Part shown: in pieces, positions 62,891 through 63,511 of the stretch
Layout: each line of letters begins with the position of its first letter
How positions within the stretch are numbered: position 1 is the first letter of the stretch
The notes under the pieces: model-generated
The model's input: only the letters and a program-made list of their open reading frames with translations
The model's database searches: none
What the model was told of the DNA's origin: nothing
From: Candidatus Cloacimonadota bacterium
GTDB lineage: Bacteria > Cloacimonadota > Cloacimonadia > G963667145
Direction: 5' to 3'
Assembly (NCBI GenBank): GCA_963667255.1
Contig: OY762940.1
Coordinates: forward strand, 928,001 to 992,000
Length of the DNA: 64,000 nucleotides
Position numbers and translations under genes: made by a program

Positions 62891-62973
62891 TCAAGCACCT
62901 ATTTTTTACTCTGATAAGGATTAAAACCTTAAACATAAACAAAAATAGAAACGAGTGAAAAATAGGTGCTTGA
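62891..62973 (+). repeat. 23S IVS-like hairpin, copy 1 (about helix 10)
   Basis: 21-bp stem TCAAGCACCTATTTTTTACTC / GAGTGAAAAATAGGTGCTTGA, 41-nt loop. Confidence 0.9.
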
Positions 62974-63071
62974 GGCATACGCGGTGAATTGAAACATCTA
63001 AGGTAACCGCAGGAAAAGAAAATAAATAATGATTTCCTAAGTAGTGGCGAGCGAACGGGAAAGAGCCTAAA

Positions 63072-63149
63072 CCAAGCACCTATTTTTAATTCTGAGAAGG
63101 AATTGCAAACAGAATAGAGAATAGAAACGAGTTAAAAATAGGTGCTTGG
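63072..63149 (+). repeat. 23S IVS-like hairpin, copy 2 (about helix 15)
   Basis: 21-bp stem CCAAGCACCTATTTTTAATTC / GAGTTAAAAATAGGTGCTTGG, 36-nt loop. Confidence 0.9.
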
Positions 63150-63432
63150 GGTTGCGGGACTGCGATATCGGACTGATAGAGGATAGTCGAACTTAGCTGG
63201 AAAGCTGGAGCGAAGAAGGTGAAACTCCTGTAGACGAAATTCTGTATCTGCTGTAGCAGTATCCCAAGTAGGGCGGGGCACGTGAAACCCTGTCTGAATC
63301 TGCCGGGACCATCCGGTAAGGCTAAATACATTTTGCGACCGATAGTGAACTAGTACCGTGAGGGAAAGGTGAAAAGTACCCCGGAAGGGGAGTGAAATAG
63401 TATCTGAAACCGTATGTTTATAATCAGTCAGA

Positions 63433-63511
63433 CCAAGCACTTATTTTTAACTCTGATAAGGTATAATTAAACAGAGATAAGAATAGAAGCGAGTTAAAAG
63501 TAAGTGCTTGG
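63433..63511 (+). repeat. 23S IVS-like hairpin, copy 3 (about helix 25)
   Basis: 21-bp stem CCAAGCACTTATTTTTAACTC / GAGTTAAAAGTAAGTGCTTGG, 37-nt loop. Confidence 0.9.

Follow-up and report, generated by a model that had tools for sequence, protein, structure and literature searches.

Several bacterial systems pair an autonomous gene with short palindromic followers that share only its ends, among them REP/RAYT, IS200/IS605 and MITEs, and REP/RAYT elements insert with no target duplication. Within CPR rRNA genes, non-intron GIY-YIG insertion sequences were reportedly described by Brown et al. in 2015. Passages of a later study (Tsurumaki et al. 2024, PMC11270868) place such inserts at scattered, poorly conserved sites, together with many short inserts that carry no open reading frame (ORF), and judge the GIY-YIG genes of CPR rRNA to lie outside homing. 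A further small GIY-YIG nuclease, SsnA, is described in passages of Chenal et al. (2025, PMC11893778) as cutting single-stranded DNA beside its own hairpin; in Neisseria it lowers, rather than raises, integration. The authors propose a mobile origin for Ssn and its NTS repeats and raise a link to REP in their discussion, and a term search of the main text finds no mention of rRNA.

Classical intervening sequences (IVSs) of 23S rRNA are the closest counterparts in anatomy to the hairpins analyzed here: like these, they are stem-bounded inserts in variable helices, including H25 and H45, they occur in some operons and are missing from others, and some contain an ORF. Passages of PMC4990558 describe a Coxiella IVS at H45 whose stem is cleaved midway by RNase III, and passages of PMC2801512 describe Campylobacter IVSs at H25 and H45; Salmonella, Leptospira, and H9 of alphaproteobacteria are further cases cited in these two sources. 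The origin and function of rRNA IVSs are called unclear in PMC4990558, where loss of a mobility gene is given as one old hypothesis.

The window, that is, the whole stretch of 64,000 nucleotides that was analyzed, is G000:C1:928001-992000, part of a genome from a Candidatus Cloacimonadota bacterium (G000) consisting of a single contig of 1.59 Mb. It ends within the 23S rRNA gene of operon A, of which it contains the 5' part (62740..64000, plus strand; Rfam RF02541). Three short hairpins lie in this gene on the same strand, with lengths of 83 nt (copy 1, 62891..62973), 78 nt (copy 2, 63072..63149), and 79 nt (copy 3, 63433..63511). Their coordinates, lengths, and 21-bp stems proved exact on recheck, and their insertion at different helices of the gene, as claimed in the preliminary description, was borne out by placement with RF02541 and by alignment to the annotated E. 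coli 23S. In this alignment, copy 1 replaces E. coli 150-176 and copy 3 replaces 539-554, while copy 2 falls in a poorly aligned helix near ~270-290. We take these sites to be H10 (copy 1), H15 (copy 2), and the tip of H25 (copy 3).

The finer features first noticed in the three hairpins also held up. Each stem has one G-U pair in a different place (stem positions 17, 19, and 12 in copies 1, 2, and 3), copy 3 carries a compensatory change from C-G to U-A at stem position 9, and the three shared loop words occur in all copies. In addition, copy 1 has U-A in place of C-G at stem position 1. The folding z-scores of copies 1-3 are -7.7, -5.2, and -7.6, none of 200 shuffles folding as well, and the loops are related to each other, since only 17, 0, and 0 of 500 shuffles score as well. 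Pairwise, the copies at H10, H15, and H25 are 76-87% alike, i.e., 13-24% divergent.

All three copies are real, but the original count fell short, as there are four in the gene and seven in the genome. The fourth begins 124 bases beyond the window end and is a 313-nt full element that has the terminal stem of the short copies (G000:C1 992124-992436) and replaces E. coli 1164-1185 of the same 23S gene; this site is presumably H45. Inside it lies an ORF of 84 aa (G000:C1 992162-992416) with a ribosome-binding-type site, and the ends that enclose this ORF are, over 20 bp, the same as those of the short copies. The encoded protein consists of a single GIY-YIG domain (Pfam PF01541, E 2e-16) and has no separate DNA-binding domain. 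Residues Y5, Y16, R26, H30, Y47, and E61 do not vary among the 71 proteins aligned, which comprise whole ORFs of 70-100 aa from 69 of the 80 loci considered below and two proteins from this genus. The Tyr, Arg, His, and Glu set presumably has the catalytic roles, and together with the domain match it assigns the protein to the GIY-YIG superfamily. The UPF0213 structure 1zg2 also matches (E 3e-6), and the predicted model, which is confident (pLDDT 93.6), gives HIGLE (Z 7.5, rmsd 3.5, 83 aligned) and Slx1 (Z 6.7, rmsd 3.3, 83 aligned) as its best fold matches, although these scores are middling and, like any VIA-align Z below 8, supporting only. Derivation of the short copies by deletion was considered and rejected: the interiors of copies 1-3 align to the full element no better than shuffles do (257, 36, and 136 of 500 for the three copies), so they are not simple recent deletions.

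The second rRNA operon of G000, operon B, lacks copies 1 and 3 and keeps copy 2 with one extra base. At H10 it has instead a 17-nt hairpin whose outer 5 bp are common with copy 1, and at H25 a short native hairpin identical to that in operon b of G001, a genome of the same genus. A 4-nt deletion and a stop disrupt its version of the nuclease gene, although the enclosing stem is intact. The short native hairpin that other operons have at H25 and H45 is replaced exactly by the element, while the element and the empty helix have their outer 3-5 bp in common at H10 and H15 (0-5 bp across all sites); no target duplication was seen on comparing filled with empty alleles. Because the empty alleles carry short native helices, each element replaces a helix. 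The empty state is likely to be ancestral at H25 and H45, since the empty H25 helix is identical in G000 and G001 and short helices at both sites are similar across the genus.

A fifth member, of 70 nt, is found in the RNase P RNA (G000:C1 1142458-1142527), in a helix that we take to be P12. A genome-wide scan for hairpins of the family type returned seven elements and, besides these, one cross-pairing row. Each of the seven lies in a gene for rRNA or RNase P, and the same scan returned none in each of three shuffled genomes. A terminator-like intergenic hairpin at G000:C1 72618-72649 (L034) has the 13-bp core of the family with a T-run behind it, and is perhaps a collapsed element.

Five further single-contig genomes of the genus carry the family, at H10, H15, H25, H45, and P12, and the filled helices often differ between operons of one genome. 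Over the 12 operons of the six genomes, H10 is filled in two, H15 in ten, H25 in two, and H45 in three; no long insert occurs in the 16S genes of these operons. One of the ten filled H15 sites holds a different GIY-YIG gene, whose product is 58% identical to the H45 nuclease; a quick protein tree, in which 42 of 70 branches are open, does not resolve whether the two have a shared origin. G000 and G001 have the nuclease-bearing H45 element in common and are filled alike at H10, H25, and H45 in one operon, and operon b of G001 is without the element at all helices. The P12 member is long in G000, G001, and G005 and collapsed in G002; the copies of G000 and G001 are 77% alike. G003, G004, and G005 have short copies without a nuclease of the 84-aa type, and the H15 copies of G002 and G005 are near-identical (97%). 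Copies at the same helix in G000 and G001 are 58% and 67% alike, below the range within G000, and this greater likeness of paralogues in one genome than of same-helix copies in a sister species points to copying or conversion between helices within the genome.

Across 11 short copies, scored on a structure derived from the same 11 sequences, pairing holds in 96.5% of cells and covariation is seen at 10 of 21 pairs, G-U pairs are tolerated in the stems, and 7 of the basal 13 pairs are invariant. The earlier suggestion of selection on structure therefore stands as regards the pairing, which is kept, but is incomplete, because the basal stem is conserved in sequence also. A 9-base core pattern was no commoner across the genus than its reversed control, and a phylum-wide hairpin pattern hit 4 of 232 genomes, all of the same genus, a result that shows little because the pattern is too narrow to recover even the copies of G000 and because rRNA may be missing from the assemblies of many of these genomes. 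Of 41 genomes, 20 gave any 23S match; two from another family have at H15 a gene-bearing member that is broken, and a further genome has a short member at H10.

Other inserts were encountered as well. The short 'empty' H45 helices of G003 and G005 (L004/L024 and L005/L025) and the P12 helix of G002 (L125) resemble element ends and may be collapsed relics. Unrelated H25 inserts of ~210 nt and ~55 nt occur in other families of the class (L017/L030 in G034 and L014/L028 in G008), and an unrelated insert of ~140-157 nt lies in the 23S-5S spacer (L139-L146) of G002, G003, G005, and one operon of G004; G000, G001, and the second operon of G004 lack it. The 16S-23S spacer of one G004 operon only (L143) has a 107-aa ORF with a signal-peptide-like start. 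In the window, the 16S-23S spacer contains a four-helix-bundle gene (23S_rRNA_IVP, TIGR02436; 62095..62442, plus strand) between tRNA-Ile and tRNA-Ala, mentioned for context only, which is flanked by its own unrelated inverted repeats (62035-62056 and 62467-62488, with 7-base tandem repeats); it was found in both operons of G000, G001, and G005 and not found in G002-G004.

Scanning species genomes yielded 307 confirmed relatives of the 84-aa nuclease, and the best 80 of these, which come from many phyla, were analyzed; their loci include near-duplicates and hence are not independent. Hosts among these best 80 of 307 include Deferribacter, Desulfovermiculus, Methylotuvimicrobium, Nitrospirales, SAR324, and many Patescibacteria. 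For the 77 of the 80 loci that lie off a contig edge, an inverted repeat brackets the gene in 51, compared with 7 of 265 control windows, and 33 of these 51 have a start of the CC-n-n-GC-A/C-C type, as in the G000 element. The remaining 26 have no scoring inverted repeat, and several of them adjoin tRNA genes. At 25 of the 80 loci, 26 nuclease genes lie inside 16S or 23S rRNA genes, at six or more differing sites, and every one of the 26 is in sense orientation (0 antisense). The 23S sites are near E. coli 131-177, 268-290, 540-553, 1164-1185, and 1870; the others are in 16S near 68-243 and 439-473, in RNase P, intergenic, and at tRNAs. The element was initially called rRNA-targeting, which is true of its hits in rRNA but too narrow, as it is also in RNase P RNA and has relatives elsewhere that are intergenic and at tRNAs. 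No shared target sequence was found among the insertion sites of the relatives, nor a general target-site duplication, direct repeats of 5+ nt being present at 4 of 19 non-rRNA loci vs. 33 of 342 controls. Rfam searches on the loci of 20 relatives named two RNase P genes and nothing else.

Gene-bearing and short copies also occur together elsewhere. Desulfovermiculus resembles G000 in this, with one gene-bearing and four short copies in one operon, and locus L113 has one gene-bearing and one short copy in RNase P RNA. Of 15 gene-less copies compared with the full element at their own locus, two of them from G001, 10 gave a match ranking within the top tenth; the test was confined to short copies with a full element passing the scan locally (17 further short copies had none). 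The exact-stem pattern was found in one stretch of the metagenome contigs, outside rRNA by eye and possibly by chance, and in none of the viral contigs. Gammaproteobacteria have composite H25 inserts composed of a short element, a gene-bearing arm, and a short element (L042, L055, and L091 at ~1350-1940; L067 at 54-556). At L093 and L101, elements appear by eye to lie within pilin-like N-terminal coding stretches, with short direct repeats, and one E. coli record has its 23S match divided across 1261 bases, which suggests that a 23S gene there carries an insert of ~790 bases.

Judged from sequence anatomy, the hairpins qualify as classical rRNA IVSs: they are inserts in variable helices, missing from other alleles, with a long stem of complementary ends, in a host with an RNase III gene (PF14622 above cut-off, open frame of 256 aa). 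The best of the RNA sequencing runs holds 0.19 of the query words. The stem lengths, 21-27 bp in the hairpin family, compare with 28 bp for the Coxiella IVS in passages of PMC4990558. What distinguishes the hairpin family from classical IVSs is that a single terminal sequence recurs at four 23S helices as well as in RNase P RNA, that H10 and H15 are among its sites, and that its ORF encodes a GIY-YIG nuclease, whereas that of classical IVSs encodes the four-helix-bundle S23 protein. To judge from passages of PMC11270868, the CPR GIY-YIG rRNA inserts and the present element very probably belong to the same family; the terminal motif, the link between gene-bearing and short inserts, the RNase P site, and a mechanism are absent from those passages, and the host of G000 is not a CPR bacterium. 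In the literature searched, which was mostly outside subscription journals, no description linking a GIY-YIG nuclease to short IVSs was found.

The resemblance to Ssn and its NTS/SRM repeats, as described in passages of PMC11893778, consists in a small single-domain GIY-YIG gene, flanking repeats of its own that form hairpins, and gene-less copies elsewhere. The systems differ in that the ends of the hairpin element pair with each other and enclose the gene, and in that it is present in 7-8 copies, in structured RNA genes. No exact NTS exists in G000 (19 occur at 3 mismatches), and the flanking stem has a different sequence. Ssn-like GIY-YIG proteins of 93-94 aa, encoded in G002 beside NTS-like repeats and with a relative in G005, are 37-38% identical to the family; their tryptophan-rich tail is missing from all 71 family members, and they form a separate branch (SH-aLRT 100 in the quick tree). 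With flanking repeats, tail, and tree branch as proxies, the hairpin-element nuclease appears to fall outside Ssn (cd10448). The Ssn-like genes themselves are L135/L136 of G002, two identical copies amid several NTS-like repeats, and L133 of G005.

Other known elements fit less well. A group I or II intron with a homing endonuclease was rejected, as Rfam searches gave no intron family and the element comprises a stem and an ORF only; TIGR01453 scores 21.9 bits against the ORF, for a cut-off of 56. Like MITEs, the short copies have terminal inverted repeats in common with an autonomous partner, but a DDE-type MITE or insertion sequence was rejected because replacement occurs without target duplication and the ORF is a GIY-YIG rather than a DDE gene. 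Likewise, membership in REP/RAYT, which would require an HUH tyrosine partner, was rejected on account of the enclosed GIY-YIG gene. From REP/RAYT and IS200/IS605 the element differs both in this enzyme, which is neither HUH tyrosine nor DDE, and in replacing a resident hairpin at the sites examined.

The explanation we favor, at a probability of about 0.6, is that the three hairpins are non-autonomous copies of a GIY-YIG hairpin element, moved by a nuclease that would cut hairpin DNA and excised from pre-rRNA by RNase III. They are read as gene-less copies because they share their terminal stem with the gene-bearing insert and occupy the places of native helices. The mobile or gene-converting hairpin proposed in the preliminary description is thereby supported and extended, with filled and empty alleles in one genome and a nuclease-bearing copy with the same ends. 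The alternative offered at the same time, expansion segments retained as several matching ribosome arms for a host protein, came out weak, and we regard it as highly improbable. It would agree with the conserved pairing, the loop words shared within G000, the filling of H15 in most operons (10/12), and the P12 copy common to G000 and G001 (77%), but two copies are missing from operon B and all from operon b of G001, sister species use other helices, the loops differ between species, and one copy is a 313-nt gene cassette. An expansion segment would be fixed in the lineage, whereas these inserts are polymorphic between operons. An assembly artefact is scarcely credible. The genome probably derives from a metagenome, repeats of rRNA genes are difficult for assemblers, and runs X19 and X20 may be from the source sample; yet the copies are 13-24% apart from each other, distinct versions give independent support in the five other single-contig genomes, and the unitigs of X19/X20 contain the filled and empty forms at matching depth, about half each. 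In X19 the depths are 44 vs. 50 and 47 vs. 47, compared with 89 at a site filled in both operons.

It is also conceivable, though unlikely, that a minimal homing enzyme cuts only the empty allele at its own helix, and that occasional ectopic recombination or template switching gave rise to the short copies, which conversion then spread, without mobilization in trans. Filled and empty alleles side by side would fit homing with conversion, as would the same H45 element in G000 and G001; the 97%-alike H15 copies of G002 and G005 suggest exchange of rrn segments, and short copies persist without the nuclease gene. Close relatives of the protein nevertheless occupy many unrelated sites in 23S, 16S, RNase P, and intergenic DNA, the protein is without a separate DNA-binding domain, and passages of PMC11270868 place these GIY-YIG genes outside homing. 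Less likely still is a processing-friendly RNA module spread by recombination alone, in which the nuclease gene is a passenger that uses a strongly transcribed, excised RNA as its mRNA. The four-helix-bundle gene may use other IVSs in the same way, and the sense orientation of all 26 genes in rRNA, the ribosome-binding-type site in G000, the tolerance of G-U pairs, and the dead gene within an intact stem in operon B are all compatible with such a passenger. Against it, the same terminal motif brackets the gene in intergenic positions, where rRNA processing does not apply, the stem sequence tracks the local nuclease-bearing element, and a purely structural role would not fix the basal sequence across phyla.

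For a mobile GIY-YIG hairpin element, we envisage three steps. By analogy with SsnA (PMC11893778), the nuclease, made from the rRNA transcript, would probably recognize the basal stem of its own element where the DNA is single-stranded or cruciform and nick at hairpin bases, and repair would swap the resident hairpin for the element. Recombination and gene conversion would then, very likely, spread, homogenize, and remove copies between helices, operons, and species. Finally, it is probable that only surface helices tolerate the element and that RNase III cuts the 21-bp stem, so that the 23S rRNA would be fragmented yet assembled and the insert rendered harmless. As G000 and G001 are filled alike at H10, H25, and H45 in one operon, insertion may be old and the likeness of the copies due to later conversion. 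The observations comprise shared ends, filled and empty alleles, helix-for-helix replacement, likeness within the genome, an intact set of catalytic residues, and sense orientation; counted against the favored explanation are the short copies without nuclease in G003-G005, the untraceable interiors, the lack of a common target sequence or of a duplication, and the third of relatives without a repeat.

More tentatively, at somewhat less than even odds, the locus may represent a widespread, undescribed minimal mobile element, in which an 80-90-aa GIY-YIG nuclease, enclosed by a stem that pairs with itself, puts itself and its gene-less followers in place of resident hairpins in structured-RNA genes, without target duplication, and which would have given rise to a large share of the rRNA IVSs of bacteria. 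If true, it would constitute a third hairpin-enzyme system beside REP/RAYT and NTS/Ssn, with Slx1-like chemistry. On the favored explanation, the replacement of surface helices in ribosomal and RNase P RNA would account for the origin of some rRNA IVSs. Very small nucleases whose specificity is set by a stem could come from the element family, and inserts of this kind affect both rRNA sizing and operon-based taxonomy. The locus adds filled and empty alleles together in one complete non-CPR genome, and because this genome has the empty alleles alongside a candidate enzyme with its cognate ends and three followers that lack the gene, the origin of IVSs becomes directly assayable.
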